Of a stretch of 64,000 nucleotides of DNA, positions 2,563 through 42,562 are shown one piece after another; the first letter of the stretch is position 1, and every line of letters begins with the position of its first letter. This DNA is from Pseudomonadota bacterium. GTDB lineage: Bacteria; Pseudomonadota; Gammaproteobacteria; Pseudomonadales; Moraxellaceae. Under the pieces are notes generated by a model, which was given only the letters and a program-made list of their open reading frames with translations, ran no database searches and was not told the DNA's origin. Made by a program: the position numbers and the translations under genes. The stretch is taken from positions 171,357-235,356 of the forward strand of contig JBBTCA010000001.1 in NCBI GenBank assembly GCA_038043385.1, written 5' to 3'.

Positions 2563-3492
2563 ATGACAACGGCATGGGTATTTCCCGGTCAGGGCTCGCA
2601 GGCCATCGGCATGCTGGCCGATCTGGCAGCTGAATTTTCTACCGTTCAAGACACATTTTCTGAGGCTTCTGCAGCCTTGGGCAAGGATTTGTGGGTGCTG
2701 GCACAGCAAGGCCCGGAGGCTGAACTGAACGCCACTGAAAACACCCAACCCTTGCTGCTCACCGCCGGCATCGCCGTGTGGCGCACCTGGCAGGCACAAG
2801 GTGGCGAAACTCCTCAATTTCTGGCCGGGCACTCGCTTGGTGAATACACTGCGCTGGTCGCCGCTGGCGTATTGTCATTGGCCGATGGCGTGCGCCTGGT
2901 CGCCGAGCGCGGCCGCCTGATGCAGGCGGCGGTGCCGGCCGGGCAGGGTGCCATGGCCGCCATTCTTGGTCTCGATGATGCCGCCGTGATTGCCGCTTGC
3001 GCCGAGGCGGCTCAGGGCGATGTGGTATCGGCGGTGAATTTCAATTCGCCGGGCCAGGTCGTGATTGCCGGCAGCACCGCTGCTGTTGAGCGCGCGATGG
3101 CGGCCTGCAAGACGGCGGGCGCCAAGCGCGCTCTGCCGCTGCCGGTGAGTGCGCCGTCGCATTGTGCGCTGATGCAGCCGGCGGCCGAGAAGCTGGCCAT
3201 CCATCTGCAATCCCTGACCTTTAATACGCCTGTCATCCCGGTGGTGCAGAATGCGGCCGCGCGAATCGAGGCTGATCTGGTTAGTTTGCAATCGTCATTA
3301 ATTACGCAGCTGCACAGCCCGGTATTGTGGTCGCAGAGTGTGCAGTGGTTGGCTGAGCAAGGTGTGACGCGCTTTGTGGAAAGTGGGCCGGGCAAGGTGT
3401 TGACCGGCCTGAACAAGCGTATCGCCAAGGATGCCGAGCATGTGTCGGTGGAGTCCGCCGAAAGTCTCAAGGCCGCATTGGCACTGGTTTGA
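2563..3492 (+). CDS. fabD: malonyl-CoA:ACP transacylase
   Basis: FPGQGSQ, GHSLGEY catalytic motif, VSAPSHC, GPGKVL. Confidence 0.97.
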   Translation: MTTAWVFPGQGSQAIGMLADLAAEFSTVQDTFSEASAALGKDLWVLAQQGPEAELNATENTQPLLLTAGIAVWRTWQAQGGETPQFLAGHSLGEYTALVAAGVLSLADGVRLVAERGRLMQAAVPAGQGAMAAILGLDDAAVIAACAEAAQGDVVSAVNFNSPGQVVIAGSTAAVERAMAACKTAGAKRALPLPVSAPSHCALMQPAAEKLAIHLQSLTFNTPVIPVVQNAAARIEADLVSLQSSLITQLHSPVLWSQSVQWLAEQGVTRFVESGPGKVLTGLNKRIAKDAEHVSVESAESLKAALALV

Positions 3493-21239: not shown

Positions 21240-22604
21240 TCAGGCCTCCAGTTCGGCGAGGCCGTCCTCCAGATACTGCAGCAGCTTCTGCATATGCGGC
21301 AGCGTGCGGCGGCAGGCGATGATGCCGATCTCGAACTTCTCGGCGTAGCTGACCACCGTGATGTTGGTGGCCTGGCCGTCCATCGCGATGGACACCGGGT
21401 AGATGCCCTCCAGCTTGGCGCCATTCCAGTACAGCGTTTCGCGCGGGCCCGGCACATTCGATACCACGATGTTGAACGCCTGCCAGGTCGGCGCGATGCC
21501 GGTCGCCATGTTGATGCCGCTGACCGCCATGGCGGTGGCCACATAGTTCATGATTTCCAGCTGATTCATGGTCGCGAACCTGTCCTTGCTGTTCTGCACC
21601 GAGCGCGCGATGGCATCCAGGCGCTCCAGCGGATCGGCGAGATGCGTGGCGAGGTTGGCGAGCACGACGCCGACCTGGTTGCCGCCCTCGGAGTCATCCT
21701 TGCGCAATGACATCGGCACCATGGCCACCAGCGGTTTGTCGGGCAGGGCGTTGAGTTCAATCAGGTATTTGCGGACGGCGGCAGCACACATGGCCAGCAC
21801 GATGTCGTTGAGTGTGGCGTTGTGGCGTTTGGCGGCGGCTTTGATGCGCGGCAAGTGCCACGATTGCGCGGCGAAACGCCGTGAGGCGCTGATCGGCTGG
21901 TTGAGGATGGTGCGCGGTGCCTGGAACACCGACACATAGTCGGCGTCGGAGCTGCGTGCCTTAATCGACTTGTAGATCTCGCGGGCCACGGTGGGCCAGG
22001 TTGAGGCTTGCTCTTTGACGATGCTGGCGAATTTCGCAGCACGCGACAGTGGCTGCGTGACCTGCGCCACAACGCCATCGGCCGGAGCGCGCTTGCGTGG
22101 CGGAATCGCCCAGAACGGCACGGTATCGCGCACGGCAGGATCGGGCGACATGCTGCGCTGCAACATGCGCATGCCCGCCACACCATCGACCAGAGCATGG
22201 TGGATACGGCTGTAGACGGCGACGCGGCCATCTTCCACGCCATCAATGATGTAGATCTCCCAAAGTGGCTTGGCGCGATCCATCACACCGCTATGCAGCT
22301 TGGAAACAATCGCCAGCAGCTCGCGGATACGGCCCGGCTTGGGCAGCGAGATGTGGTGGAAATGAGCTTCGAGGTCGAATTCGGTGTCGTCAGTCCAGAA
22401 CGGCAGGCCGAGCTTGTAAGTCAGCAGCTGATTGAACGGCGGCTGCGCCTTGGTGTAGGAGCGCGCCCAGTCGGCCAGCTCCTGCGCGTAGTTGGGGCCG
22501 GCATCCGGCGGCGGCGACAGCAGCATCAGGCTGCCCACATGCATGGGCTGATTGCGGCGCTCAACGAGCAGGAACATCTGGTCTTGCGGGGAAAGCGGCG
22601 TCAT
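21240..22604 (-). CDS. wax ester synthase/diacylglycerol acyltransferase (WS/DGAT)
   Basis: LSPQDQMFL...QPMHVG, HHALVDG catalytic motif, NIVVSNVPGP. Confidence 0.94.
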   Translation of the reverse strand: MTPLSPQDQMFLLVERRNQPMHVGSLMLLSPPPDAGPNYAQELADWARSYTKAQPPFNQLLTYKLGLPFWTDDTEFDLEAHFHHISLPKPGRIRELLAIVSKLHSGVMDRAKPLWEIYIIDGVEDGRVAVYSRIHHALVDGVAGMRMLQRSMSPDPAVRDTVPFWAIPPRKRAPADGVVAQVTQPLSRAAKFASIVKEQASTWPTVAREIYKSIKARSSDADYVSVFQAPRTILNQPISASRRFAAQSWHLPRIKAAAKRHNATLNDIVLAMCAAAVRKYLIELNALPDKPLVAMVPMSLRKDDSEGGNQVGVVLANLATHLADPLERLDAIARSVQNSKDRFATMNQLEIMNYVATAMAVSGINMATGIAPTWQAFNIVVSNVPGPRETLYWNGAKLEGIYPVSIAMDGQATNITVVSYAEKFEIGIIACRRTLPHMQKLLQYLEDGLAELEA

Positions 22605-24457
22605 AGCTTGATGCTCTTATTATGAATTTCTTGATGGATGGCGGCGGTCAGCGGCTCGTAGCCGCGAGCGCGGTCGGCGAGCACGAACAGCGGCTCGCCG
22701 ATGCGCTCGGGATCGAAGCCTTCCTGCTTGAGTTCGACCTTGCGGTACTTGAAGGTGCCGGTGGTTTCCTGCGCGGCCTGCACGCGGATGAACAGGGGCA
22801 CGGCGTAGGCGGGCAGCGTGGCGGCGAGATGCTGTGCCAGCGCCGCACCATCCAGCGCGTGACCGGCTTTCAGGGTGATGGCGGCCATGCCGGCGCGACC
22901 GTCGCAGCCCGGCACATTCACCCCATAGACGGCCCCGTGCTCGATACTGTCGAAGCGGGCGACCGCGCCCTCGACTTCGGTGCTGGCCACATTTTCGCCC
23001 TTCCAGCGGAAGGTATCGCCCACGCGGTCAACGAACTGGATGTGGCGCAGACCCTGATCGCGCACGAGGTCGCCGGTGTTGAAGTAGCAGTCGCCCTTCT
23101 TGAACACACCTCGGATCAGCTTCTTCTCGCCGGCGGCGGGGTCGGTGTAGCCATCGAACGGGCGGCGCTCGCTGACCTCGCTGATGAGCAGGCCGATGCC
23201 ACCTTTTTTCACTTTGATCAGATGCCCCTTGGCGTCCTTCACCGGCTCGTCGCTGTCGGCATCGAACTCAACGATGGCAAACGGCAGCGGCGAGAAACCG
23301 GCCGTCTCGGACACGCCGAAGGCATTGATGAAGCCGATGTTGGACTCGCTGGCGCCGTAGAATTCGTAGATGCGCTCGATGGCAAAGCGCTTCTGGAATT
23401 GCTGCCAGATTTCCGGGCGCAGGCCGTTGCCGGTGATCAGGCGGATCTTGTGATCCTGATCGCGCGCGGTGGCATCGCGATTGAGCAGATAGCGCAGCAG
23501 CTCGCCGATGTAGGTGAAGGCGGTGGCGTCGTAATGGCGGATGCGATCCCAGAACTGGCTGGCGCTGAACTTGCGGTCTATCGCCAGCGTAGCCCCAGCG
23601 GAGAGCACGCAGCCCCAGGCCACGGTCAGCGCGTTGTTGTGATACAGCGGCAGGCAGCAATAGAAAATATCGTCTGATTTCAGGCGCATGGTGGCGTTGC
23701 CGACACCGGCCATCGACGCCAGCCAGCGGTAGTGCGTCATCACCGAGGCTTTTGGCATGCCGGTGGTGCCTGAGGTGAAGATGTAATAGCAGGGCTGCCG
23801 GGCCGTCACTTCGCGGGTGCTGGCTGGGTTGATGCTGCGCTGGCGGCCGCTGTCGCGATCCAGATCGATATAACCGTCCGGGGCCGGCGTCCGTGCGTCG
23901 CCGCCGGTCCAGAAGAAGGTCATGGCGTTGCTGCCGGGCTGGCAGTCGGTGGATTCCAGCGCAGCGCGGCATTCGGCGCTGAGCACCAGCACCTTGGGCT
24001 TGACCAGGCCGATGCTGTGGCTGAGCGTTTCGCCGCGCTGGTTGAAATTGAGCATGCCGGCGATGGCACCGAGCTTCACCGCCGCTGCCACGCAGGCGAG
24101 CTGCATCGGGCTGTTTTCGGCGAGGATGGCTACGGTGTCGCCACTGCCTACGCCCTGCGCGGCAAAGCTGGCGGACAGGCGATTGGCCCAGCTGTTGAAC
24201 TCGGCATAGGTCCACTGCTGATCCTGCCAGCGCACGGCCACGCGCTGCGGTGCTTGCCGGGCCCAGCGTTCGAGCACACGGCCGATGGACAGCTTGCTGT
24301 CTGGCTTCAGCGTGGCGAGGCCGAACAGGCCCTTGTTGAGCGTGACCAGATCGGGGATGGCTTGCAGCGCGCCGCGAGCAATGTCGCGCAGACCGACTTT
24401 TTTAGGAGCGTCAGGCTTGGCGGCGTCAGAGGCCGCTGGATTAGAGGATGCGCACAT
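22601..24457 (-). CDS. long-chain acyl-CoA synthetase (FATP/VLACS type)
   Basis: YIFTSGTTGMPKA, YGASE, YFNTGDL, DRVGDTFRWKGENVAS; start trimmed to MCASSN since the longer ORF runs into modE. Confidence 0.9.
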   Translation of the reverse strand: MCASSNPAASDAAKPDAPKKVGLRDIARGALQAIPDLVTLNKGLFGLATLKPDSKLSIGRVLERWARQAPQRVAVRWQDQQWTYAEFNSWANRLSASFAAQGVGSGDTVAILAENSPMQLACVAAAVKLGAIAGMLNFNQRGETLSHSIGLVKPKVLVLSAECRAALESTDCQPGSNAMTFFWTGGDARTPAPDGYIDLDRDSGRQRSINPASTREVTARQPCYYIFTSGTTGMPKASVMTHYRWLASMAGVGNATMRLKSDDIFYCCLPLYHNNALTVAWGCVLSAGATLAIDRKFSASQFWDRIRHYDATAFTYIGELLRYLLNRDATARDQDHKIRLITGNGLRPEIWQQFQKRFAIERIYEFYGASESNIGFINAFGVSETAGFSPLPFAIVEFDADSDEPVKDAKGHLIKVKKGGIGLLISEVSERRPFDGYTDPAAGEKKLIRGVFKKGDCYFNTGDLVRDQGLRHIQFVDRVGDTFRWKGENVASTEVEGAVARFDSIEHGAVYGVNVPGCDGRAGMAAITLKAGHALDGAALAQHLAATLPAYAVPLFIRVQAAQETTGTFKYRKVELKQEGFDPERIGEPLFVLADRARGYEPLTAAIHQEIHNKSIKL

Positions 24458-24584
24458 GAGGGTCAGCTCTCTGAAAAGAGTCTTGTTAGATACGGGCAAT
24501 GAGTTTGCCATAAAAGAGTTGCTGTCAGACTGTGATGCCGGCGTGGCAAGATAAAAGGCGGTGTTTACAAGACTGGGAGCGGGC

Positions 24585-24965
24585 ATGTTGATACATCGTA
24601 TCCGCCTGATGCAGGGTGATGAGATTGCGCTGGGGCCGGGCAAGGCCGATATCTTGAGGGCGATTCGCGAGCACGGCTCGATCTCGGCGGCGGCGCGTCG
24701 CATGGGCATGAGCTATCGCCGCGCCTGGCTGCTGGTGGACACCATGAACCGGTGTTTCCGCGAGCCACTGGTGCTGTCGGCGGCGGGTGGCAGCCAGGGC
24801 GGCGGGGCCAGCCTGACGCCGCATGGCGAGGAGGTCTTGAGTCACTACGAAAAGATGGAGGCCGAAGTGAGTCGTGTCACCGATTCATACGAGGGGCAAT
24901 TCAACGGCTGGCTGCGCGATGACGCGTCTGAGCAACGGCCGGCCGAGCCATCAGGCACCGACTAG
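24585..24965 (+). CDS. modE: short ModE-type winged-helix molybdenum regulator (no MOP/TOBE domain)
   Basis: LGPGKADIL...GSISAAARRMGMSYRRAWLLVDTMN...GGGASLT; adjacent to modABC. Confidence 0.88.
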   Translation: MLIHRIRLMQGDEIALGPGKADILRAIREHGSISAAARRMGMSYRRAWLLVDTMNRCFREPLVLSAAGGSQGGGASLTPHGEEVLSHYEKMEAEVSRVTDSYEGQFNGWLRDDASEQRPAEPSGTD

Positions 24966-25592
24966 CCGCCCATCGGCCAGCGTCAGCACATGCGGCGTCA
25001 GCGCCTCGATTTCATCACGCGAATGGCTCACATAGAGCATGGGGATGCCGGTCTCGTCGCGCACGCGCTGTAGGAACGGCAGGATCTGCGCCTTCAGCCG
25101 GCTGTCTAGCGCGGATAGCGGCTCGTCGAGTAACAGCAGCTGCGGCGAATAGAGCAGCGCGCGACCCAGCGCCACACGCTGGCGCTCGCCGCCAGACAGC
25201 TGCTGCGGCATGCGCGCCAGCAACGAACCGATGTCGAGCATGGCCACGATGTCATCCAGCGCATAACGCCGCTGCTCTGGCCGCAGCCGCTGCCAGCCAT
25301 AGAGCAGGTTCTGGCGCACGGCGAGGTGCGGAAACAGCCGGCCATCCTGAAACAGCAGCCCGATGTGGCGCTGATGCGGCGGCACAAACACACGCTGGCG
25401 GGTATCCACCAACACGCGATCAGCCAGCACGATACGGCCCTGCGTGGGCGCCAACAGGCCGGCCAGCAAGGCCAGCAGCGTGCTCTTACCGGCGCCGGAT
25501 GCACCGAAGATCGCCGTCACCGGCTCGTTCAGCGTGGCCGCCATGTGCAGCTGAAACTCGCCGCGCTGCAGGGTCAGATCAAAGTTCAGCAT
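24951..25592 (-). CDS. modC: molybdate ABC transporter ATP-binding protein (short, no TOBE)
   Basis: GASGAGKST, FQDGRLFPHL, LSGGERQRVALGRAL, YVSHSRDE. Confidence 0.92.
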   Translation of the reverse strand: MLNFDLTLQRGEFQLHMAATLNEPVTAIFGASGAGKSTLLALLAGLLAPTQGRIVLADRVLVDTRQRVFVPPHQRHIGLLFQDGRLFPHLAVRQNLLYGWQRLRPEQRRYALDDIVAMLDIGSLLARMPQQLSGGERQRVALGRALLYSPQLLLLDEPLSALDSRLKAQILPFLQRVRDETGIPMLYVSHSRDEIEALTPHVLTLADGRLVGA

Positions 25593-26283
25593 GATGGCCC
25601 TGACCCAGGCGCTGCGCGGCGCGTCGTGAGAGATAGTTGCCGAGCAGCAGCGAGGCAAACGCCAGCGTCAGCGAAATCAGGATCAGGCGCATGGCCATCG
25701 GTTCGCCATCAATACGCTGGACGGCGCTGTAAATGGCCAGCGGCAGTGTGCGCGTTTCCCCCTCGATGTTGCCGACGAAGGTGATGGTGGCACCAAACTC
25801 GCCGAGGCTGCGACTGAAGGTGAGCAGCGCCCCGACCAGAATGCCAGGCAGGGCCAGCGGCAGCGTGACGCTGGCAAAAAGCATCAGCGGCGAGGCTCCG
25901 AGCGTGCGCGCGGCGTTTTCCAGACGGGCATCGACCAGTTGCATGGACAGCCGCACCGACTGCACCAGCAGCGGAAAGCCCATGACCGCCGACGCCAGCG
26001 CTGCGCCCAGCCAGTTGAACGAAAACGACACCCCGCAGCAGTCCGCAAGCCAGCGCCCGACCGGCCCTTGGCTGCCGAAAGCCAGCAGCAGCAAGTAGCC
26101 CGGTACCACCGGCGGCAGGACCATGGGTAGATGCACCACGGCATCGAGCATGGCCTTGCCGACGAACTCGCGCTTGGCCAGCAGCCAGCCGAGAAAGATG
26201 CCGGGCAGGAGGCTGGCCAGCGTGGCGATACCGGCGACCTTGAAGGAAAGCCAGAGGGCCGATTGTTCTTCCGGTGTCAGCAT
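25579..26283 (-). CDS. modB: molybdate ABC transporter permease
   Basis: HLPMVLPPVVPGY, EAA-like ENAARTLGA, RSLGEFGATI, TRTLPLAIY. Confidence 0.95.
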   Translation of the reverse strand: MLTPEEQSALWLSFKVAGIATLASLLPGIFLGWLLAKREFVGKAMLDAVVHLPMVLPPVVPGYLLLLAFGSQGPVGRWLADCCGVSFSFNWLGAALASAVMGFPLLVQSVRLSMQLVDARLENAARTLGASPLMLFASVTLPLALPGILVGALLTFSRSLGEFGATITFVGNIEGETRTLPLAIYSAVQRIDGEPMAMRLILISLTLAFASLLLGNYLSRRAAQRLGQGHHAEL

Positions 26284-26308: not shown

Positions 26309-27076
26309 TCAAGGGGTCAGTACCACGAAGCCGGCCTGGCGATAAACCGCCTTGGCGGCATCGCTCTGCAGGTAGCGGTAAAAGTCGCGGGCCTCACTAG
26401 AGGCGCGCGGCAGCAGGGCGATGGGGTAGATGATAGGGTCGTGCGAGCTGGCGGCAAAGCGTCCGGCGATCATGACCTGCGTGCTGGCAGCGGCATCGGT
26501 GGCATAGACCACACCCAGCGGGCATTCGCCGCGCTGCACAAACGCCAGTGCTGTGCGCACATCCTCGGTGCCGACCACGCGCTTCGCCAGCGCATCCCAC
26601 CAGCCCAGGCTTTGCAGCGCCTGTTGCCCGTAGATGCCGGCCGGCACATGGCTGGGGTCGCCCATGCAGAGCTTGCCGGTGAAGCTGGCGGCGAGGTCAG
26701 TGCCCTTTTTCATGACCACGGTGCGCGGCTGGGCAGCCGACGCAATCAGTACCAGCTCGTTGCCAAGCAGGTTCTTGCGCGAGCCTTTGTCGATCAGCCG
26801 GCGGGTTTGCAGATAGTCCATCCACTGCGTATCGGCAGCGATGTAGAGGCCTGCCGGCGCGCCGGCTTCGATCTGCTTGGCCAGCGTCGAAGAGGAAGCG
26901 AACGACGGCTTGATGTGCGTTGATTTGTCCTGCTCGTAGCTCGTGGCCAGGGTCTTGATGACATTGGTCAGGCTGGCGGCGGCGTAGATCGTGACATCGC
27001 CTGCCCATAGCGGGGATGCCAGGAAAAGGCATCCTGCCAGCGCGAGTTTTGCGAGTGAGGTGTTGCGTTGCGCCAT
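26309..27076 (-). CDS. modA: molybdate ABC transporter periplasmic binding protein
   Basis: Signal peptide, YAAASL, FASSSTLAKQIEAGAPA, VPAGIYG, DVRTALAFVQRGE. Confidence 0.95.
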   Translation of the reverse strand: MAQRNTSLAKLALAGCLFLASPLWAGDVTIYAAASLTNVIKTLATSYEQDKSTHIKPSFASSSTLAKQIEAGAPAGLYIAADTQWMDYLQTRRLIDKGSRKNLLGNELVLIASAAQPRTVVMKKGTDLAASFTGKLCMGDPSHVPAGIYGQQALQSLGWWDALAKRVVGTEDVRTALAFVQRGECPLGVVYATDAAASTQVMIAGRFAASSHDPIIYPIALLPRASSEARDFYRYLQSDAAKAVYRQAGFVVLTP

Positions 27077-27105
27077 GTTGAATCTCCTTTGATTGTATTT
27101 TGCCT

Positions 27106-27129
27106 GGTTATATCTTGTTGTATATAACG
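27106..27129. promoter_or_regulatory. ModE box upstream of modA
   Basis: GGTTATATC-N6-TATATAACG matches the ModE consensus CGYTATATA-N6-TATATARCG. Confidence 0.85.
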
Positions 27130-27213
27130 ATTTCTACTGCCATGATTCGCCCACTTCCAGGTTTGGCTTTTCCGGCTGCTGTTCAGGTTGCTGTCGCATG
27201 CTTCAACATGCGG

Positions 27214-27237
27214 CGCTATGTATAAGCAAATATAGCG
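27214..27237. promoter_or_regulatory. second ModE box upstream of porin gene
   Basis: CGCTATGTA-N6-AATATAGCG, one mismatch per half-site, 22 nt before the porin ATG. Confidence 0.75.
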
Positions 27238-27259
27238 ACAACTTCAACAGGAGCCACAC

Positions 27260-28537
27260 ATGAAATTCAATTTTTCACGGACACCGATGTTTGCATTGCC
27301 GCTGCTGACCACATTGGCCACGCCTGTTTTTGCTGGCGATGCCACGCTGGAGTTGCTCGCCCAGAAGGGCATCATCAGCGCCGAGGAATACGCCACGCTG
27401 AAAGCCAAGCAGAAAGATCAGGCTCAGGTCAGCCTCAAGGACGGCCTGAAAATCACCAGTCAGGATGGCAAGGGCAATGTCCAGTTTGGTGCCTTGATGC
27501 AGCTGGATGCGGCGCACTTTACCAACAAGAGTAGCGGGGCCAGCAAGGACTACGGCGATGGCAGCGAGCTGCGGCGCGGCCGTCTGAGCATGTCTGGCAC
27601 CAGCGGTGCCTGGGATTTCCGCCTAGAGACCGAGCTGTCGCCGAATGCCACGCTCGGCATTACCGATGCCTGGGCGACCTGGCGCGGGCCGGTGAACATC
27701 ACAGCCGGCAACTTCAAGGTGCCCTACAGCATGGAAGCGCTGATGAGCGACAAGAATCTGGCCTTCATGGAGCGTTCGCTGGCGGCGGCATTTCTGCCAG
27801 TACGGGCGCCGGGCATCATGGTCAGCAAAAGCAGCCCGCACGGCAGCCTAGCCGCCGGTGTTTTTGGCGAACCGCTGAGCACCGCCACGAGCGATGACGA
27901 AGGCGGTGGCTTCAGTGCCCGCGCAACTTGGGCGCCGATGATTGCCAGCGGCCATGTGCTGCATGTGGGCGGCTCGATGCACTGGCGTCAGCCAACTCAG
28001 GTGTCGGCCGGCAGCAAGCTGGAAACGCTGCGGCTGTCGAGCAAACCGGAGATGAACCTGTTCCCGGATCGGCTGGTGGATACCGGCAACATTGCCGGCG
28101 ATGTGCGCGACAGCCGCGTTGCTGCGCTGGAGCTGGCCACAACGCAAGGCCCGGTGACGGCGCAGGCGGAATATGCGATGACGCAGGTTCGTCGTGAGAC
28201 CGGCAGCAATCTCGACTTTACCGGCGCCTATGCCCAGATCGCCTGGGCCGTGACCGGCGAAGTGCGTGGCTACAAGCCGGAAACGGGCGTGCTGGACGGC
28301 ATCCGACCGAATGGGGCGGTGGCCTGGGAGCTGGCGGCGCGCTATTCCAAGTTGGATCTGACGGATGGCACGGTCAAGGGCGGCGAAGAGCGCAATGCCA
28401 GCTATGCCATCAACGCCTATGTGGGGCCGAATGTGAAGCTGAGCCTGAACTATGTGGATGTGCTGTCGGTCAAAGGCGGGCTCATGAACGGCAATGAACC
28501 ATCGGCAGTGATGCTGCGCACGCAGTTCAGTTATTAA
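27260..28537 (+). CDS. OprO/OprP-family anion-selective outer membrane porin
   Basis: Signal peptide, N-terminal LAQKGIISAEEY helix, ELRRGRL, FKVPYSME...FMERS, WELAARYS, C-terminal RTQFSY beta-signal; AGGAG RBS. Confidence 0.85.
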   Translation: MKFNFSRTPMFALPLLTTLATPVFAGDATLELLAQKGIISAEEYATLKAKQKDQAQVSLKDGLKITSQDGKGNVQFGALMQLDAAHFTNKSSGASKDYGDGSELRRGRLSMSGTSGAWDFRLETELSPNATLGITDAWATWRGPVNITAGNFKVPYSMEALMSDKNLAFMERSLAAAFLPVRAPGIMVSKSSPHGSLAAGVFGEPLSTATSDDEGGGFSARATWAPMIASGHVLHVGGSMHWRQPTQVSAGSKLETLRLSSKPEMNLFPDRLVDTGNIAGDVRDSRVAALELATTQGPVTAQAEYAMTQVRRETGSNLDFTGAYAQIAWAVTGEVRGYKPETGVLDGIRPNGAVAWELAARYSKLDLTDGTVKGGEERNASYAINAYVGPNVKLSLNYVDVLSVKGGLMNGNEPSAVMLRTQFSY

Positions 28538-28597
28538 GCTGATGTGCTAGCGGCACGGGGATCTGTCAAAAGCCCTGTGCCGCGAACACAAGAGGCT

Positions 28598-30487
28598 TTA
28601 AAGCTCGACCTGCGTACCCATCTCCACCACACGGTTGGTCGGGATCTGGAAAAAGTCGGTGGCCGAGACTGCGTTACGCGCCATCGCCACAAACAGCTTT
28701 TCGCGCCAGCGCGACATGCCGTGACGACCGTTCGCGATGATGCGCTCACGGGACACGAAGAAGCTCGTGTCCATCATATCGAAGCTCAAGCCCTGCGTTT
28801 TGCAGAGCGTGAACAGTGCCGGCACATCGGGTTGTTCCTTGAAACCGTAGGCGGCTGTGACCAAGTAGAACTCATGCGCAATACGCTCGATGACCAGGCG
28901 CTCGCTATCATCCACAAAGGGCACATCGCGGGTCATCAGCGTGAGCAGCACATTGCGCTCGTGGATGATCTTGTTGTGCTTCATGTTGTGCAGCAGCGCG
29001 TGCGGCACATAGTGATGCGAGCCGGTCATGAACACCGCCGTGCCTGGCACCGTCTGGCCGGCGCTGGCGCCAATGCTGTTGATGAAGAGCTTGAGCGGCA
29101 TGGTCTCGGAATTCAGGCGATGACTGAGAATGTCCCGCCCTGCCTTCCAGGTTGCCATCACGAAAAATGCCGAACAGCCAATCGCCAGCGGGAACCAGCC
29201 GCCCTGCAGCACTTTCAGCGATGTGGCGCCGAAGAACACCAGATCCACAGCCAGGAATGGTATGGCAACGGCCGCCGCCAGTGCCGGGTGCCAACCCCAC
29301 AGCTTATGTGCGACCACGAGCAGCAGCAGGGCATCGCAGATCATGGTCATGGTCACGGCAATGCCGTAGGCAGAAGCCAGGTTGCTCGACGACTTAAATA
29401 CCAGCACTAGCAGGATGATGGTGCCCAGCAGTGTCCAGTTGAAAAACGGAATATAGATCTGGCCCATCTCGCGATCGGAGGTGTGGTTGATCTGGAAGCG
29501 CGGCAGATAGCCCAGCAGCATGGCCTGACGGGCAATCGAGAAGACCCCGGAGATCACGGCCTGCGATGCAATCACGGTGGCCAGCGTGGACAGCATAATC
29601 AACGGCACCAAGCCCCAGTCCGGCACCAGCCGGTAGAACGGATTCTCGATGGCGGTGGGATCGCTGAGCAGCAGTGCACCTTGGCCGGCGTAATTCAGCA
29701 GCAGTGCCGGAAACACCAGAAAGAACCACGCACGACGGATCGGCTTGCGGCCAAAATGGCCCATGTCGGCATACAGCGCCTCGCCGCCGGTCACGGTCAG
29801 CACCACCGCACCCATGGCAATGAACGCGGCCAGCGGATGCTCACCAATAAAACTGATGGCCCAGACCGGATTCACCAGCATCAGCACTTCCGGCGAGTGA
29901 CGCACATTAGCGATGCCGAGCACGGCCAGCGTGGTGAACCAGACCAGCATCACCGGCCCGAAAAAGGTGCCAATCGACGCCGTGCCGTGGCGCTGAATCA
30001 GGAACAGCGAAATCAGCACAGCGATGGTGATGGGGATAACGAACGCCTCCAGCCCCGGCGACACCACCTTCAAGCCCTCGACGGCCGACAGCACTGAGAT
30101 GGCGGGCGTGATCATGCCATCGCCAAAGAACAGCGCGGCACCGAACAGGCCGATGCCGATCAGCACGGGGCGTAGCCAGGTATGGCGATACTGAGCGCGC
30201 AAGGCCAGCGCCAGCAGGGCCATGATGCCGCCCTCGCCACGGTTGTCGGCACGCATGATAAAGGCGATGTACTTGATGGACACGATGATGGTCATCGACC
30301 AAAAAATCATGGACAGGATACCGAGCACATTGGCCTGTGTGAGCTCCAGGCCGTGGGCTGCGTGAAAGCATTCCTTGAGCGCGTAAAGCGGACTGGTGCC
30401 GATATCGCCGAAGACCACACCGAGCGCGCCTGCAGTGAGGGCCAGCTGGTGCTTGAAGCGGGGTGAGCCGGATGACTCAGCTTGCAT
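28598..30487 (-). CDS. kup: potassium uptake protein Kup
   Basis: LGVVFGDIGTSPLYA, DNRGEGG, GGEALYADMGHFG, GQIYIP, AYGIAVT; start trimmed to 30487 because the longer ORF overlaps the tRNA. Confidence 0.96.
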   Translation of the reverse strand: MQAESSGSPRFKHQLALTAGALGVVFGDIGTSPLYALKECFHAAHGLELTQANVLGILSMIFWSMTIIVSIKYIAFIMRADNRGEGGIMALLALALRAQYRHTWLRPVLIGIGLFGAALFFGDGMITPAISVLSAVEGLKVVSPGLEAFVIPITIAVLISLFLIQRHGTASIGTFFGPVMLVWFTTLAVLGIANVRHSPEVLMLVNPVWAISFIGEHPLAAFIAMGAVVLTVTGGEALYADMGHFGRKPIRRAWFFLVFPALLLNYAGQGALLLSDPTAIENPFYRLVPDWGLVPLIMLSTLATVIASQAVISGVFSIARQAMLLGYLPRFQINHTSDREMGQIYIPFFNWTLLGTIILLVLVFKSSSNLASAYGIAVTMTMICDALLLLVVAHKLWGWHPALAAAVAIPFLAVDLVFFGATSLKVLQGGWFPLAIGCSAFFVMATWKAGRDILSHRLNSETMPLKLFINSIGASAGQTVPGTAVFMTGSHHYVPHALLHNMKHNKIIHERNVLLTLMTRDVPFVDDSERLVIERIAHEFYLVTAAYGFKEQPDVPALFTLCKTQGLSFDMMDTSFFVSRERIIANGRHGMSRWREKLFVAMARNAVSATDFFQIPTNRVVEMGTQVEL

Positions 30488-30596
30488 ACAGATCCTCGAT
30501 GGGCGAGCAGCGAATCTGCCGGCCACCTCGTTTGCGGGCAGTGATTTTAGCACCGCTATTGGCGCGATAGCCAAGCACTTGCCGTGCAAAAAGGCT

Positions 30597-30625
30597 TTGC
30601 CTTGCCGTAGAGCTTCCGCTAGGAT
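30597..30625 (+). promoter_or_regulatory. sigma70 promoter for tRNA-Ser
   Basis: TTGCCT (30597-30602), N17, TAGGAT (30620-30625), then GC-rich discriminator GCGCGCCG. Confidence 0.6.
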
Positions 30626-30659
30626 TGCGCGCCGCTGAAGTGCAAAGCTTCGGCGCGCT

Positions 30660-30750
30660 GGTGAGGTGTCCGAGTGGCTGAAGGAGCACGCCTGGAAAGC
30701 GTGTATACGGTAATCCCGTATCGAGGGTTCGAATCCCTCTCTCACCGCCA
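30660..30750 (+). tRNA. tRNA-Ser(GGA)
   Basis: Acceptor GGTGAGG/TCTCACC, D-arm GTCCGAGTGGCTGAAGGAG, anticodon arm CACGC-CTGGAAA-GCGTG, long variable arm, GGTTCGAATCC, encoded CCA. Confidence 0.97.
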
Positions 30751-30763
30751 AGTTAAATTCACT

Positions 30764-30790: not shown

Positions 30791-31134
30791 GTTTTCTAAG
30801 CCTCAAAAAATCATTCAGACCCCCCAAAAGAAACTTCAAAAATATTTGCTCATAAAATGAGAAGTCAAAAATAGCTCACCCCTTCGCTGACGGTGGAAGC
30901 TTTCATGGCGCGGGATCGGGGATTTCGACAGGCTCTGAAGTGAGAGGCGTAGTCGCCAAGCGCTTTGCGAGCAGCTGCTTCGGGGTACGATCAAACGAAG
31001 ACAAGGCCATACTTTCCTTATAGAAATAGATTTCTAACATTTTTATGTTGAAACTAGCTTTTAATTCCGAATTAAAGGACTATCCTCCGCTGCAAGAGCG
31101 ACTGCAAACGAGCAGCGATGAGGGAGGAAAAGCC

Positions 31135-32319
31135 ATGCTTCGGTCATTCAGCCTGAAGAATTTTCAGTCATTCCTGGAAGAGGCCAGCATCTCGCTGGAG
31201 CTTAACAAGAATGCACCTGTTGATGATCGATCTGCTGAGTCTCAGACCGGTGATCGCATCACCAAAGTCATGGCGGTGATTGGTGCCAATGCCAGTGGTA
31301 AGACGACGCTGATCAAGTCGCTGGGCTTTCTGGATTGGTTCATCAAGTACTCGTTCCACAACCGTATCGACGCCGATCTGCCGATTGATCCGCATTTTTC
31401 AGCCCGTGACCAAGCCTCCGAATTTGAAGCTGAATTTGAAATGGATGGTCAGGTTTGGCGCTATAGCCTTCAGGCCACTCGCGAGCGCGTCTTGCTGGAG
31501 TCCTTGCATCGCAGGCTGAGCCGTACATTTTCCTATGTGTTCATTCGCACTTGGGATGCTGATGCCAATACCTATACGGTCAAGCAGCAGCAGTTTGGCA
31601 TGCCGCAGCGCGAGGCGGTGAAGACCCGGCCGAATGCGTCGATGATCTCAACCGCTGCGCAGTTTGATGTCGATCTCGCGACCCGTTTGGTTAACCTGCA
31701 GGTGTTCAGCAATGTCACCGGTATGGGCCGTGCCTACATGGACAACAACCAGATTCTGTTGGCCTCTGACTTTTATGCCCAAAACGAGCTTTATCAAACC
31801 CAAATGTCGAACTTGTTGCGACAGTGGGACTTGGGCTTGTCTGCCGTGAGGCTGGTAAAGCAGGAAGTTACCGACAGTAATGGCGAGAAAAAAGAGATTC
31901 ATGTGCCGTATGGCGTGCATGCCATCCATGGCCGAGAACATGAATTGATCCTCATGCAGGAGTCCAGCGGTACGCAAGGCGCATTTACCTTGCTGTCTCG
32001 CATCTTGCCGGCGCTGAGCGCAGGCGGCTTGGCGATCATTGACGAATTGGAGTCAGACCTGCATCCGCACATGCTGACGCCTATTCTGAATCTATTTTTC
32101 TCGCCCAAGACCAATCCGCATAACGCGCAGATCATCTTCACGACGCATGCCATCGAGGTCATGAATCAGCTGCACAAAGCTCAAATCGTGCTGGTCGAAA
32201 AAGATGCTGCTTGCGAGAGTGATGCCTGGCGGCTGGATGACATCAAGGGCGTACGCGTGGAGGACAACCTCTACGCCAAATACATGGCTGGCGCGTACGG
32301 CGCTATTCCTCAGTTCTGA
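31135..32319 (+). CDS. ABC/AAA_21-type ATPase (RloA/AbiLi/AriA-like)
   Basis: MLRSFSLKNFQSF start after GGAGG RBS, Walker A GANASGKTT, signature ESSGT, Walker B AIIDELE, H-loop QIIFTTH, C-terminal YMAGAYGAIP. Confidence 0.88.
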   Translation: MLRSFSLKNFQSFLEEASISLELNKNAPVDDRSAESQTGDRITKVMAVIGANASGKTTLIKSLGFLDWFIKYSFHNRIDADLPIDPHFSARDQASEFEAEFEMDGQVWRYSLQATRERVLLESLHRRLSRTFSYVFIRTWDADANTYTVKQQQFGMPQREAVKTRPNASMISTAAQFDVDLATRLVNLQVFSNVTGMGRAYMDNNQILLASDFYAQNELYQTQMSNLLRQWDLGLSAVRLVKQEVTDSNGEKKEIHVPYGVHAIHGREHELILMQESSGTQGAFTLLSRILPALSAGGLAIIDELESDLHPHMLTPILNLFFSPKTNPHNAQIIFTTHAIEVMNQLHKAQIVLVEKDAACESDAWRLDDIKGVRVEDNLYAKYMAGAYGAIPQF

Positions 32320-32331
32320 GGGGTATGAAGA

Positions 32332-32841
32332 GTGGCTAAACGCATCCGTCATACCCGAAGCACGCTGCTCGTCGTAGGCGAGGGCGATACCGAGGTGGCC
32401 TTTCTGAGGCACCTGCGTGTGATCTTTTGCTCAGACGGCAAAGGGGTCGAGGTCACCATCCGGAATGCTTACGGAAAAGGCCCGGAGAATGTGATCAACA
32501 CCGTGATCGGCCATTGCCGCAGCATTGACTATGACCATCGCATGGCGTTTTTGGATACGGATTTGTTGTGGACGGCCAGCCTGAAAAAACAGGCTCGGGC
32601 GGAGAAGGTTGAGATGATCGGGTCGACACCTTGCATCGAGGGCTTGCTGCTTCAGATTTTGGGCGAGCCCGTGCCCTCGTCATCTTCAGCGTGCAAGAAA
32701 AAGCTTCAGGATTTATTAGGTTCGGACATGACTGATCGTGATCATTATGGCAGTCGGTTTTCCCGTGGAGTTTTGATGGCTGCGCGCCTGAAAATACCTG
32801 AACTCCATGCGCTTCTGAATCGCTTTGACGGCGGCAAGTGA
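32332..32841 (+). CDS. RloB-like TOPRIM-fold protein
   Basis: LLVVGEGDTEVAFL (EGxTE), FLDTD (DxD), STPCIEGLLL; directly after the ATPase. Confidence 0.8.
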   Translation: MAKRIRHTRSTLLVVGEGDTEVAFLRHLRVIFCSDGKGVEVTIRNAYGKGPENVINTVIGHCRSIDYDHRMAFLDTDLLWTASLKKQARAEKVEMIGSTPCIEGLLLQILGEPVPSSSSACKKKLQDLLGSDMTDRDHYGSRFSRGVLMAARLKIPELHALLNRFDGGK

Positions 32842-33069: not shown

Positions 33070-33197
33070 GTGGCGCACAGCACATTTGTTTAGATTTTTC
33101 GCTGAAATTCGTCCCTAGCTATAAATTTGGCGACAAATCTAATCATTTTGCAGCTCTGTTATGATTTGTTCGCAGTTTGCGAATATGGAATGGCAAC

Positions 33198-33698
33198 ATG
33201 AATCTCAAGCCACAAGATGTCATGGTCGTGCTCGGCGCTGTCATCAAGCCGCCGGCAAGTGCGATCTATCAGGATCGGGCCTGGCAGCTCGCCATGAGTA
33301 GCTCAGAAGTTCATGCAGCTGATCGCCGGCTGAAAGCAGCTGGCTTGCTGGCCGAAGGGCGGCCAGTACGGGCGGCGCTGGAGGAGTTTCTGGTTCATGG
33401 CCTGCGTTATGTTTTTGTGCCTGAGCTAGGTTCGGTGGTCAGAGGTATGCCGACTGCCCATGCCGGCCCGGGTTTGTCGGCATTGTTCGCCGAAGACGAG
33501 CTGCCCCCGGTCTGGCCAGACCCTGAAGGTCAGATTCGTGGCTTATCGTTCTCGCCGTTATATCGATCAGCGCCAGAAGCTGCGCGTCGTGACATCAGGT
33601 TGTATGAGCTGCTGGCACTGGCGGATGCGTTGCGTGGTGGCCGTGCTCGCGAGCGCAAGCTAGCGGCTGAATTGATGCGCAAACACTTGAGCCGGTGA
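33198..33698 (+). CDS. winged-HTH hypothetical protein, likely antitoxin-like partner of nucleotidyltransferase toxins
   Basis: MNLKPQDV...AMSSSEVHAADRRL...EEFLVHGLRYVF...RGMPTA...PVWP...PLY...LYELLALADALRGGRARER; family association recalled, not searched. Confidence 0.65.
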   Translation: MNLKPQDVMVVLGAVIKPPASAIYQDRAWQLAMSSSEVHAADRRLKAAGLLAEGRPVRAALEEFLVHGLRYVFVPELGSVVRGMPTAHAGPGLSALFAEDELPPVWPDPEGQIRGLSFSPLYRSAPEAARRDIRLYELLALADALRGGRARERKLAAELMRKHLSR

Positions 33699-34833: not shown

Positions 34834-38295
<3,462 letters not shown>

Positions 38296-40531: not shown

Positions 40532-42562
40532 ATGAGTGAAGGTCAGTTTCAGGTCGTATCGAAATATCAGCCCGCCGGCGACCAGCCCACGGCCATCGAA
40601 GGGCTGGTGCAGGGCGTGGAAGACGGCCTCAGCCATCAGACGCTGCTGGGCGTGACCGGCTCGGGCAAGACCTTCACCATGGCTAATGTCATTGCCCGGC
40701 TCGGCCGCCCAGCCATCATCATGGCGCCGAACAAGACGCTGGCGGCGCAGCTCTACGGCGAGTTCAAGGAGTTCTTCCCGAATAACGCCGTCGAGTATTT
40801 CGTCAGCTATTACGACTATTACCAGCCGGAAGCCTATGTGCCGTCGTCGGACACCTTTATCGAGAAGGACGCCGCGATCAACGAGCACATCGAGCAGATG
40901 CGGTTGTCGGCGACGCGGGCGCTGCTGGAGCGGCGCGATGCCATCATCGTGGCCACGGTGTCGGCGATCTACGGCTTGGGCGACCCCGAGGCCTACATGA
41001 AGATGCTGCTGCATGTGGCGCGCGGTGATCGCATCGATCAGCGCGGCCTGCTGCGGCGACTGGCCGAGCTGCAGTACACGCGCAACGATGTCGAGTTCTA
41101 TCGCGGCCATTACCGCGTGCGTGGCGATGTCATCGATGTCTATCCCGCCGAGTCGGAAATGGACGCGGTGCGCATCGAGCTCTTCGATGAGGAAGTCGAG
41201 TCCATCTACTGGTTTGACCCGCTCACCGGCGAGGTGCGCAAGCGTGTGGCGCGCGTGACGATCTACCCGAAAACGCATTATGTGACGCCAAAAGAGCGTA
41301 TTCATGGCGCCATCGAGCAGATTCAGGTGGATCTGAAGGAGCGCCTGGAGTGGTTCCGCGCCAACGACAAGCTGGTCGAGGCGCAGCGCCTTGATCAGCG
41401 CACCAAGTTCGATCTGGAGATGCTGCAGCAGCTCGGCTACTGCCAGGGCATCGAGAATTACTCGCGCTACCTGTCTGGCCGCGAGCCCGGTTCGCCGCCG
41501 CCGACGCTGTTTGACTATGTGCCGGCGGATGCGCTGCTGCTGGTGGACGAGTCGCATGTGACCATCCCGCAGATTGGCGGCATGTATAACGGTGACCGCT
41601 CGCGCAAGGAGAATCTGGTGAATTACGGCTTCCGCCTGCCATCCGCCATGGACAACCGGCCGATGCGCTTCGAGGAGTTCGAGCGCATTTCGCCGCAGAC
41701 CATCTTTGTGTCGGCCACGCCCGGCAATTACGAGGCCGAGAAGGCGCAGGCGGTGGTTGAGCAGCTGGTGCGCCCGACCGGGCTGGTGGATCCGCAACTG
41801 GAAGTGCGCCCGGCGGCGACGCAGGTGGACGATCTGTTGTCGCAGATTCGTCAGCGCGTGGCGGTGGAAGAGCGCGTGTTGGTGACGACGCTGACCAAGC
41901 GCATGGCCGAAGACCTCAGCGAGTACCTGAGCGAGCACGGCGTGAAGGTGCGCTATCTGCATTCCGACATCGACACCGTGGAGCGCGTCGAGATCATCCG
42001 CGACTTGCGTCTCGGCGTGTTCGATGTGCTGGTCGGCATCAACCTGTTGCGTGAGGGCCTGGACATGCCCGAGGTGTCACTGGTGGCGATTCTCGATGCT
42101 GACAAGGAGGGCTTTCTGCGCTCGGAGCGCTCGCTGATCCAGACTATCGGCCGTGCCGCGCGCCATCTCAACGGCAAGGCCATCCTTTATGCCGACCGCA
42201 TGACCGGCTCCATGCAGCGCGCCATCGGCGAGACCGAGCGCCGTCGCGAACGACAGATTGCCTTTAACTTGGCGCAGGGCATCACGCCGGTGGGTGTGGC
42301 ACGGTCGGTCAGCGACATTCTCGAAACCTACGCCGGTGCGTCGGCCGCGAATGGCGGCGGCAGCCCGAGTCGTGGCAACAAGCGCAGCAGCGTGCGGCCG
42401 GGCAGCAAGCCGGTGCCTATGGACCCGAAGGCGATGGCGCAGGAAATTGTGCTGCTGGAAAAGACCATGATGGAAAAGGCCCGCAACCTCGAGTTCGAGG
42501 AGGCCGGGCGCTTGCGCGATCAGATGCTGGAATTGCGGAAAATGCTCATCAAACTGGGCTGA
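40532..42562 (+). CDS. uvrB: excinuclease ABC subunit B
   Basis: [46 protein letters not shown]-terminal UVR domain. Confidence 0.98.

Follow-up and report, generated by a model that had tools for sequence, protein, structure and literature searches.

Why does a gene for an OprO/OprP-type porin lie back to back with the genes of a molybdate transporter? This question is raised by a 64-kb stretch of DNA from a Pseudomonadota bacterium of the Moraxellaceae (GenBank assembly GCA_038043385.1, contig JBBTCA010000001.1, positions 171,357 to 235,356; the whole stretch is hereafter called the window, and positions are numbered from its first letter), whose source is a groundwater metagenome. In the window, the porin gene (27260–28537, + strand) and modA, modB and modC, on the opposite strand, diverge from an intergenic region of 183 bp (27077–27259). 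A preliminary description of this locus had proposed that the porin is one repurposed for the entry of molybdate or tungstate and co-regulated with modABC.

Molybdate is a trace nutrient found at nanomolar levels, and it is required for nitrate reduction, formate oxidation and nitrogen fixation. Its passage through the outer membrane is regarded in a review as unspecific diffusion via porins (PMC8264917). The only specific outer-membrane route for molybdenum (Mo) that we found described in the literature searched is that of Pseudomonas aeruginosa, in which ModA secreted by the type VI secretion system works with the outer-membrane protein IcmP (PMC8602904).

The answer reached here is that the porin is probably a substrate-specific channel of the outer membrane with the OprP/OprO fold, recruited to molybdate uptake and co-regulated with modABC through ModE-type operators. 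The parts of the earlier proposal that can be judged from sequence (the synteny, the boxes, the clade, the residues, and the lack of a Pho box) all turned out in its favor. The locus thus presents a known porin family with a new predicted substrate class and a new predicted regulon membership.

The porin gene and its product

The porin gene encodes a protein of 425 amino acids (aa), and a Shine-Dalgarno sequence, AGGAG (27249–27253, + strand), can be read 6 nt before its ATG. In the Pfam profile search, residues 79–425 matched Porin_O_P (PF07396) with an E value of 1e-61 and 209.7 bits, against a cut-off of 20.9, which places the protein in this family by profile. A profile made from the porins of its clade, which is delimited below, also matched OprP (E 1.8e-56), although the sequence identity between the window porin and OprP or OprO is only about 23–25%. 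Two features of outer-membrane targeting were found: one is a Sec signal peptide, read from the sequence as MKFNFSRTPMFALPLLTTLATPVFA/GD (residues 1–25, with cleavage after VFA), and the other is an aromatic C-terminus (...LRTQFSY).

The AlphaFold2 model of the monomer (pLDDT 83.3, pTM 0.78) has 16 strands, which form an OprP-type beta-barrel at residues ~56–425. When this model was compared with known structures by Foldseek, the top match was OprP (2o4v; E 4.7e-23, TM 0.74/0.77), followed by the OprO entries 4rjx and 4rjw (all with TM of 0.73–0.77), while general porins ranked far behind (target TM 0.6–0.7, E of about 1e-11 and weaker). Judged from the profile and the modeled fold together, the porin is a member of the Porin_O_P structural family. 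Its relatives are currently annotated as 'OprO/OprP family phosphate-selective porin' or 'hypothetical'.

Between the signal peptide and the barrel lies a SHOCT-like helical segment (residues ~27–52, corresponding to 27338–27415 of the window), whose match to PF09851 (E 8.6e-4) is below the cut-off. It carries the conserved sequence 'LELLAQKGIITxEEYxKLKA'. This segment was found throughout the porin subfamily, beyond the mod-linked clade, and a precomputed SHOCT match exists for one relative (P0074). Contact between the monomers of a trimer and docking in the periplasm are possibilities for its role.

The modABC genes and the ModE-type regulator

The three genes on the other side of the intergenic region are bona fide modABC, since each product scores above the cut-off of an NCBIfam equivalog model. 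ModA, the periplasmic molybdate-binding protein (26309–27076, − strand; Pfam SBP_bac_11), gave 259.5 bits for NF007958 (cut-off 253) and 185.2 for TIGR01256 (62.5); ModB, the permease (25579–26283, − strand), gave 317.3 bits for NF006939 (262) and 222 for TIGR02141 (182.6); and ModC, the ATPase (24951–25592, − strand), gave 290.4 bits for TIGR02142 (285.05). ModC is short: it has 213 aa from the ATG at 25592, covers positions 4–212 of the 353 positions of the TIGR02142 model, and has no C-terminal TOBE domain, the only Pfam match being ABC_tran. The neighbors of the porin gene are modABC and kup, with no pst or pho genes nearby.

A modE-like regulator gene (24586–24965, + strand) is convergent with modC. 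Its open reading frame (ORF) is listed from a GTG at 24561, and the product has ~126 aa when counted from the ATG at 24586. This product matched TIGR00637 (ModE_repress) with an E value of 3.2e-25 and 88.1 bits, just below the cut-off of 98.5, and it matched the full-length ModE model NF007957 over model positions 15–94 only. In a tblastn search of the window, residues 19–90 of Escherichia coli ModE were matched and none in its C-terminal half; this match is taken as a lead only. The regulator is thus the N-terminal DNA-binding domain alone, without the Mop domains, and a Mop-like ORF was not detected anywhere in the 64-kb window.

The intergenic control region

The ModE operator of E. coli and other Proteobacteria is the palindrome CGnTATATA-N6-TATATAnCG (PMC2700814). 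The window was searched, with at most 3 mismatches tolerated, for CGNTATATA-N6-TATATANCG, which forms the core of the consensus published as ATCGCTATATANNNNNNTATATAACGAT (PMC2700814). Exactly two matches were found in the 64 kb, and both are in the modA–porin intergenic region; 0.02 matches were expected, and none of 100 shuffled sequences reached two. Box 1 (27106–27129; GGTTATATCTTGTTGTATATAACG; 2 mismatches) lies 29 nt upstream of the modA ATG. Directly after box 2 (27214–27237; CGCTATGTATAAGCAAATATAGCG; 2 mismatches), whose end is 22 nt from the porin ATG, comes the ribosome-binding site. The porin is accordingly predicted, by the position of this second box, to belong to the ModE regulon.

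A search for the Pho box (CTGTCAT-N4-CTGTCAT, up to 3 mismatches) found none in the modA–porin intergenic region; the only match in the window is at 3219, versus 5 expected by chance. An Rfam scan of the whole window gave only a tRNA and no molybdenum cofactor (Moco) riboswitch. The PF07396 match and the equivalog scores therefore bear out the earlier description of an OprO/OprP-family porin divergent from modABC, and the consensus searches recovered the same two boxes, at the same distance from the porin ATG, and the same lack of a Pho box in the 183 bp.

Conservation of the arrangement in other genomes

The preliminary description had suggested that synteny and box conservation be checked in homologs. 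One genome for each GTDB species was scanned with a degenerate pattern, which gave 435 porin relatives. The analysis retained the 80 best loci; in 14 of these, the porin is at least 41% identical to the window porin. The genes in the GC-rich loci were called by a codon-position GC score, together with independent gene calls. Six further loci (L081–L086) came from look-ups of exact proteins, with independent gene calls and Pfam labels; among them are the isolate Cellvibrio zantedeschiae (L081) and a contig of 3.6 Mb (L082).

Upstream DNA is sufficient in 12 of the 14 loci that pass the 41% threshold, and in every one of them modA, modB and modC lie immediately upstream and are divergent from the porin gene. 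The six further loci likewise have a gene of the SBP_bac_11 (ModA) type divergent from the porin gene, followed by the permease and ATPase genes wherever the contig allows, so that the divergence was found in 18 of 18 loci. A ModE box with 0–3 mismatches occurs in the intergenic region of all 12 loci and of all 6. In one more locus (L006), the contig ends ~230 bp upstream of the porin gene and includes a box without mismatches, whose start lies 56 bp ahead of the extrapolated start of the porin gene. Thus, the box is present upstream of the porin gene in 19 of the 19 loci of this clade that have upstream DNA, versus none of the 66 non-clade loci (within 400 bp); only 4 ModE boxes exist anywhere in the ~0.72 Mb of these 66 loci. 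The carriers belong to the Moraxellaceae, the Steroidobacteraceae, Cellvibrio and other Cellvibrionaceae, Panacagrimonas/Solimonas, Alcanivorax, and unclassified Gammaproteobacteria, and the nearest genome is an unclassified Pseudomonadota metagenome-assembled genome (L001), whose porin is 92% identical. Cultured carriers include C. zantedeschiae (GCA_014652535.1), Panacagrimonas perspica DSM 26377 and Solimonas fluminis.

Two layouts of the boxes were found, and the box on the modA side is present in all orthologous loci. One layout is that of a sub-clade in which the intergenic region is 79–141 bp long and holds a single central box, 21–57 nt from the modA start and 31–61 nt from the porin start (these distances are hand counts, except those computed for L081 and L082). 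Since a single box lies at the center of so short a region, one operator would serve both divergent promoters. The other layout is that of the window's own sub-clade (bootstrap 100), in which the modA-side box is accompanied by a second box 18–37 nt before the porin ATG, and the intergenic region is 172–212 bp long where measured (L083–L086). The distance of the porin-proximal box was computed for these same four loci, and it is similar by hand count in L001, L002 and L009; the box of L002 has 4 mismatches and is a perfect palindrome. DNA looping between the two boxes was considered and dropped, because their spacing varies from 51 to 108 bp among the loci with no conserved helical phasing.

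As a separate observation, TGTCAA(T/A) occurs 7–8 nt to the porin side of the ModE box in the single-box loci L003, L005, L007, L008, L010, L012, L054 and L081. Its reverse complement gives TTGACA, and the spacing to −10-like hexamers is not canonical.

The regulator also occurs in two forms at these loci. The form consisting of only the DNA-binding domain was found in L001, L002, L005, L009, L010, L081, L085 and L086, while a full-length ModE stands at the same position in L003, L004, L008, L014, L054 and L082. In L081 and L005, a gene for a TonB-dependent receptor (599–2950 and 598–2991, respectively) adjoins the modE-like gene.

Phylogeny of the porins and their partner transporters

A neighbor-joining tree of 79 porins was rooted on OprP and bootstrapped in two runs. 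The mod-linked porins form one clade (hereafter, the mod clade) with bootstrap values of 98 and 100 in the two runs, and they are split from OprP/OprO by a long branch with a value of 100. The other clades have other neighbors. In the sister clade (bootstrap 84; L013, L015, L017), the porin gene is divergent from a Tup-like tungstate ABC operon, whose best NCBIfam matches are TupA and TupB, below the equivalog cut-offs; the operon of L013 ends with a regulator that joins a ModE N-terminal domain with a PBP-like one (ModE_N-PBP). In a Methylophaga-type clade (L016, L018, L019, L023, L027, L036), the porin gene is flanked by the genes for MoaC, MoaE, a TupA-like protein and a ModE_N-PBP regulator. 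In L020 and L021, a full-length modE, the porin gene and modABC follow one another on one strand. In more distant clades, the porin gene is located beside those for a sulfate-binding protein and cysTWA (L032, L033, L040), or beside those for PhnD-like proteins or for proteins of the PstS family, which score above the cut-off in L039 and L063.

The clades pair with different adjacent oxyanion importers, and therefore the porin clade tracks the partner transporter. Such tracking is the pattern expected if the specificity of the pore diverged together with its partner. The relatives beside the sulfate, Tup-like or MoaC/MoaE/TupA-like genes suggest further oxyanion-specific porins, for sulfate and tungstate, that have yet to be described.

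The Tup-like, the MoaC/MoaE/TupA-like and the modE–porin–modABC clades resemble the window locus in several respects: their porins have Arg-62 and Lys-114 (OprP numbering) and a SHOCT-like N-terminus, and each is paired with a group-VI oxyanion importer and a regulator of the ModE_N type. They differ from it in the partner binding protein, in the gene order, and in the residues at positions 34 (Tyr/Arg), 121 (Ala/Gln) and 125 (Ala/Gly/Ser); moreover, unlike the mod clade, they have no E. coli-type ModE box directly upstream of the porin gene.

Residues of the OprP phosphate site

The central phosphate site of OprP is composed of D94, Y62 (F in OprO), S124, S125, K121, K126, R34 and R133 (PMC5877670). 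We mapped these residues onto the window porin by a profile alignment to 2o4v combined with the family alignment. Under this mapping, three of the eight are kept, namely S124 (S163 of the window porin), K126 (K165) and R133 (R172), and five are changed: R34 corresponds to L79, Y62 to R108, D94 to T135, K121 to A160, and S125 to D164. The same pattern is seen throughout the clade, where position 34 is typically Leu or Met; position 94, Thr or, in rare cases, Ile or Met; position 121, Ala or Ser, with Asn in L009; and position 125, Asp. Outside the central site, R59 and R60 of OprP are kept as R105 and R106, whereas most of the periplasmic lysine cluster is lost. Y114 of OprP, the second residue by which OprP and OprO differ (PDB entry 4rjx is the F62Y/D114Y mutant), maps to K153. 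Arg-62 and Lys-114 are common to the whole subfamily of 80 loci.

The pore, as aligned, is clearly not expected to hold a phosphate site of the OprP type, and a molybdate-selective site in it appears plausible. A functional orthologue of OprP or OprO was rejected as a candidate on these grounds, the central residues being kept at 3 of 8 positions with neither a Pho box nor a linkage to pst or pho genes.

Proposed function and its alternatives

If the porin is a molybdate channel, the following scheme may hold. At the nanomolar levels of groundwater and fresh water, the porin would admit molybdate, and probably also the near-isosteric tungstate, through the outer membrane and would pass it to the periplasmic ModA for import by ModBC. 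When Mo is sufficient, the ModE-type regulator encoded beside modC would bind box 1 over the modA promoter region and repress modABC; the same regulator would bind box 2 and repress the porin gene by promoter occlusion or as a roadblock. Because box 2 is so near the ribosome-binding site of the porin gene, it would act only as a repressor site. Under Mo limitation, both modABC and the porin gene would be derepressed. The binding of the boxes by ModE, the direction of the regulation, and molybdate as the substrate are what we infer from the arrangement.

Several points weigh against this scheme. The scan for sigma-70 sites in 26950–28700 found no promoter-like site, and the geometry of operators and promoters is derived from distances only; the same scan gave one terminator-like site, which is inside the porin ORF and is fewer than expected by chance. 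When the homologous intergenic regions were inspected manually for promoters, the only −35 and −10 candidates were weak and ambiguous, and no claim is made on them. The residue mapping rests on a profile alignment at ~23–25% identity, and the alignment near D94 is possibly off by one, as the invariant D136 of the window porin aligns to E95. Under a strict filter, only four positions are clade-specific (A183, P184, A209 and A380 of the window porin), and none of them is a known OprP site residue; the 'RAPG' motif at 182–185 is a marker of the clade. Both of the usual molybdate-sensing modules, Mop and TOBE, are missing at the locus. The public runs that contain the region are all DNA metagenomes (groundwater, aquaculture and soil), and none is of RNA. 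Finally, a molybdate-selective channel and a co-regulated general channel for small oxyanions cannot be told apart by genomic association.

This last point leads to the alternative that survives best. The porin could be a general channel for small anions or oxyanions that has no molybdate-selective site, also passes sulfate, phosphate and others, and is co-regulated with modABC to raise the permeability under Mo limitation. The fact that Arg-62 and Lys-114, the strongest departures from OprP/OprO, are shared with the clades linked to PstS, PhnD-like and sulfate-binding proteins agrees with such a channel, as does the small number (four) of strictly clade-specific positions. However, the close match between porin clade and partner transporter, together with the monophyly of the mod clade (98–100), points to selection on something substrate-specific. 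In addition, four of the eight central positions of OprP (34, 94, 121 and 125) carry changes typical of the clade, and the OprP fold is a narrow pore with a binding site and not a general diffusion pore (PMC5877670). We thus consider a general channel rather unlikely, and the molybdate-specific channel remains the preferred explanation.

Another alternative concerns the regulator rather than the pore: the short ModE-type protein without Mop may bind the boxes independently of molybdate, so that modABC and the porin gene are held at a fixed or otherwise controlled level, in which case the porin could still carry molybdate. This is improbable in our estimation, even though the regulator is a DNA-binding domain only, no Mop-like ORF occurs in the window, and the short form recurs in many loci. 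The loci that encode a full-length ModE with the Mop/TOBE part (the six named above) share the layout of box and porin, and therefore the ancestral logic would be Mo-responsive; besides, a separate Mop protein or a partner could be encoded outside the 64-kb window.

An ordinary phosphate or polyphosphate porin that stands beside modABC by accident, with the second ModE-like box as a chance match, is suggested by the name of the Pfam family and by the annotation of the relatives as phosphate-selective porins, but it can hardly be reconciled with an arrangement and boxes that at least 18 loci from several families share and that the 66 other porin loci lack, with two boxes versus 0.02 expected, with the change of five of the eight phosphate-site residues, or with the lack of a Pho box and of pst and pho genes nearby. 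The uptake of a Mo chelate (molybdophore) or the efflux of excess oxyanion, instead of the entry of free molybdate, is just as difficult to accept: the TonB-dependent receptor genes beside the modE-like gene in Cellvibrio-type loci hint at a coexisting chelate uptake, but a modeled 16-stranded OprP-type barrel with a charged constriction would suit small anions and not chelates, the partner ModA binds the free oxyanion, and a box in a repressor-type position favors induction in scarcity and not in excess.

The molybdate channel may also be one case of a broader rule, which we put forward tentatively and with slightly more doubt than belief. The whole OprP-fold subfamily with Arg-62, Lys-114 and the SHOCT-like helix might consist of dedicated channels for group-VI tetrahedral oxyanions, with a particular ABC importer and regulator for each clade: ModABC together with ModE boxes, Tup-like importers with ModE_N-PBP regulators and Moco genes, and Sbp/CysPTWA. 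The window clade would then be the high-affinity molybdate channel, its selectivity arising from the replacements of R34, K121, S125 and D94. If this is true, the passage of molybdate, tungstate and sulfate through the outer membrane of many environmental Gammaproteobacteria is substrate-specific and regulated, and is not simple diffusion.

Comparison with known systems

The nearest known systems are the OprP (phosphate; 2O4V) and OprO (diphosphate; 4RJW) channels of P. aeruginosa, which share with the window porin the PF07396 domain, the 16-stranded barrel, and the residues R59, R60, S124, K126 and R133. By analogy, the logic would also be alike, in that a specific anion channel is induced by scarcity of a nutrient and feeds the periplasmic binding protein of an ABC importer (PstS in the case of OprP). 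The differences are the replacement of R34, Y62, D94, Y114, K121 and S125, the extra SHOCT-like N-terminal segment, and the setting of the gene: beside modABC under ModE boxes in the window, versus pst/pho genes and a Pho box for OprP/OprO.

The locus resembles the ModE regulon of E. coli and other Proteobacteria in the palindromic type of the operator, in the box just upstream of modA, and in the ModE-type gene beside the mod operon. It differs in that the divergent region is predicted to control an outer-membrane channel as well, and in that the regulator lacks Mop and ModC lacks TOBE. No porin was found as a member of the ModE regulon in the literature searched. Nor did we find a molybdate or tungstate porin described in the open-access literature, where absence is not proof; this agrees with the earlier statement that no well-characterized Mo porin is known.

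The general-porin and IcmP routes have one step in common with the window porin, namely the transfer of molybdate through the outer membrane to ModABC. However, general porins are non-specific and not regulated by Mo, and the IcmP route consists of a secreted binding protein and an outer-membrane protein of the metalloproteinase type, whereas the window has a passive OprP-type channel in the mod locus. Precedents for annotated phosphate-selective porins that are tied to other ions by regulation or phenotype are the predicted, Porin_O_P-like 'psp' porin of Geobacter/Desulfuromonas, which is preceded by a FUR box (PMC545781), and ExtI of Geobacter sulfurreducens, which is implicated in the reduction of selenite and tellurite and is ~12% identical to OprP (PMC5877670). 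Both are very distant from the window porin in sequence, have other regulators and partners, and show no link to molybdate or ModE.

If the prediction is correct, an OprP-type channel under the control of ModE is the missing first step of the textbook ModABC pathway, and the ModE regulon extends to the outer membrane. The subfamily would also offer a natural series of related pores (phosphate, diphosphate, molybdate, tungstate-linked and sulfate-linked) for studying how tetrahedral oxyanions are discriminated. The labels 'phosphate-selective porin' and 'hypothetical' would mislead the reading of phosphate and Mo limitation from metagenomes of groundwater and soil.

Other features of the window

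On the side of modABC away from the porin gene, the mod locus is adjoined by a wax-ester synthase/DGAT gene and a gene for an AMP-binding protein similar to acyl-CoA synthetases (21240–24709, − strand). The ORF listed for the AMP-binding protein runs into the modE-like gene. It probably begins farther downstream in reality, as the homologue in L001 has 613 aa.

On the other side, the ORF for the Kup potassium transporter (28598–30751, − strand) is listed with a TTG start that overlaps the gene for tRNA-Ser(GGA) (30660–30750) on the other strand. The Pfam domain of Kup begins at residue 106, and the true start is probably an internal Met well downstream. Beyond the tRNA gene lies a stretch of lower GC content (0.54–0.55 versus ~0.61), which contains an AbiL-type defense pair (31045–32319 and 32332–32841; AbiLi, E 3.6e-76, and AbiLii, E 7.9e-17, by PADLOC) and a gene for a PDC-M21A-like protein (33177–33698). 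This stretch is probably a small island inserted at tRNA-Ser. Farther on are a gene of the catalase-peroxidase type (34834–37014, − strand; matched by the Pfam peroxidase profile in two stretches) and uvrB (40532–42562, + strand), both of which appear to be ordinary housekeeping context.

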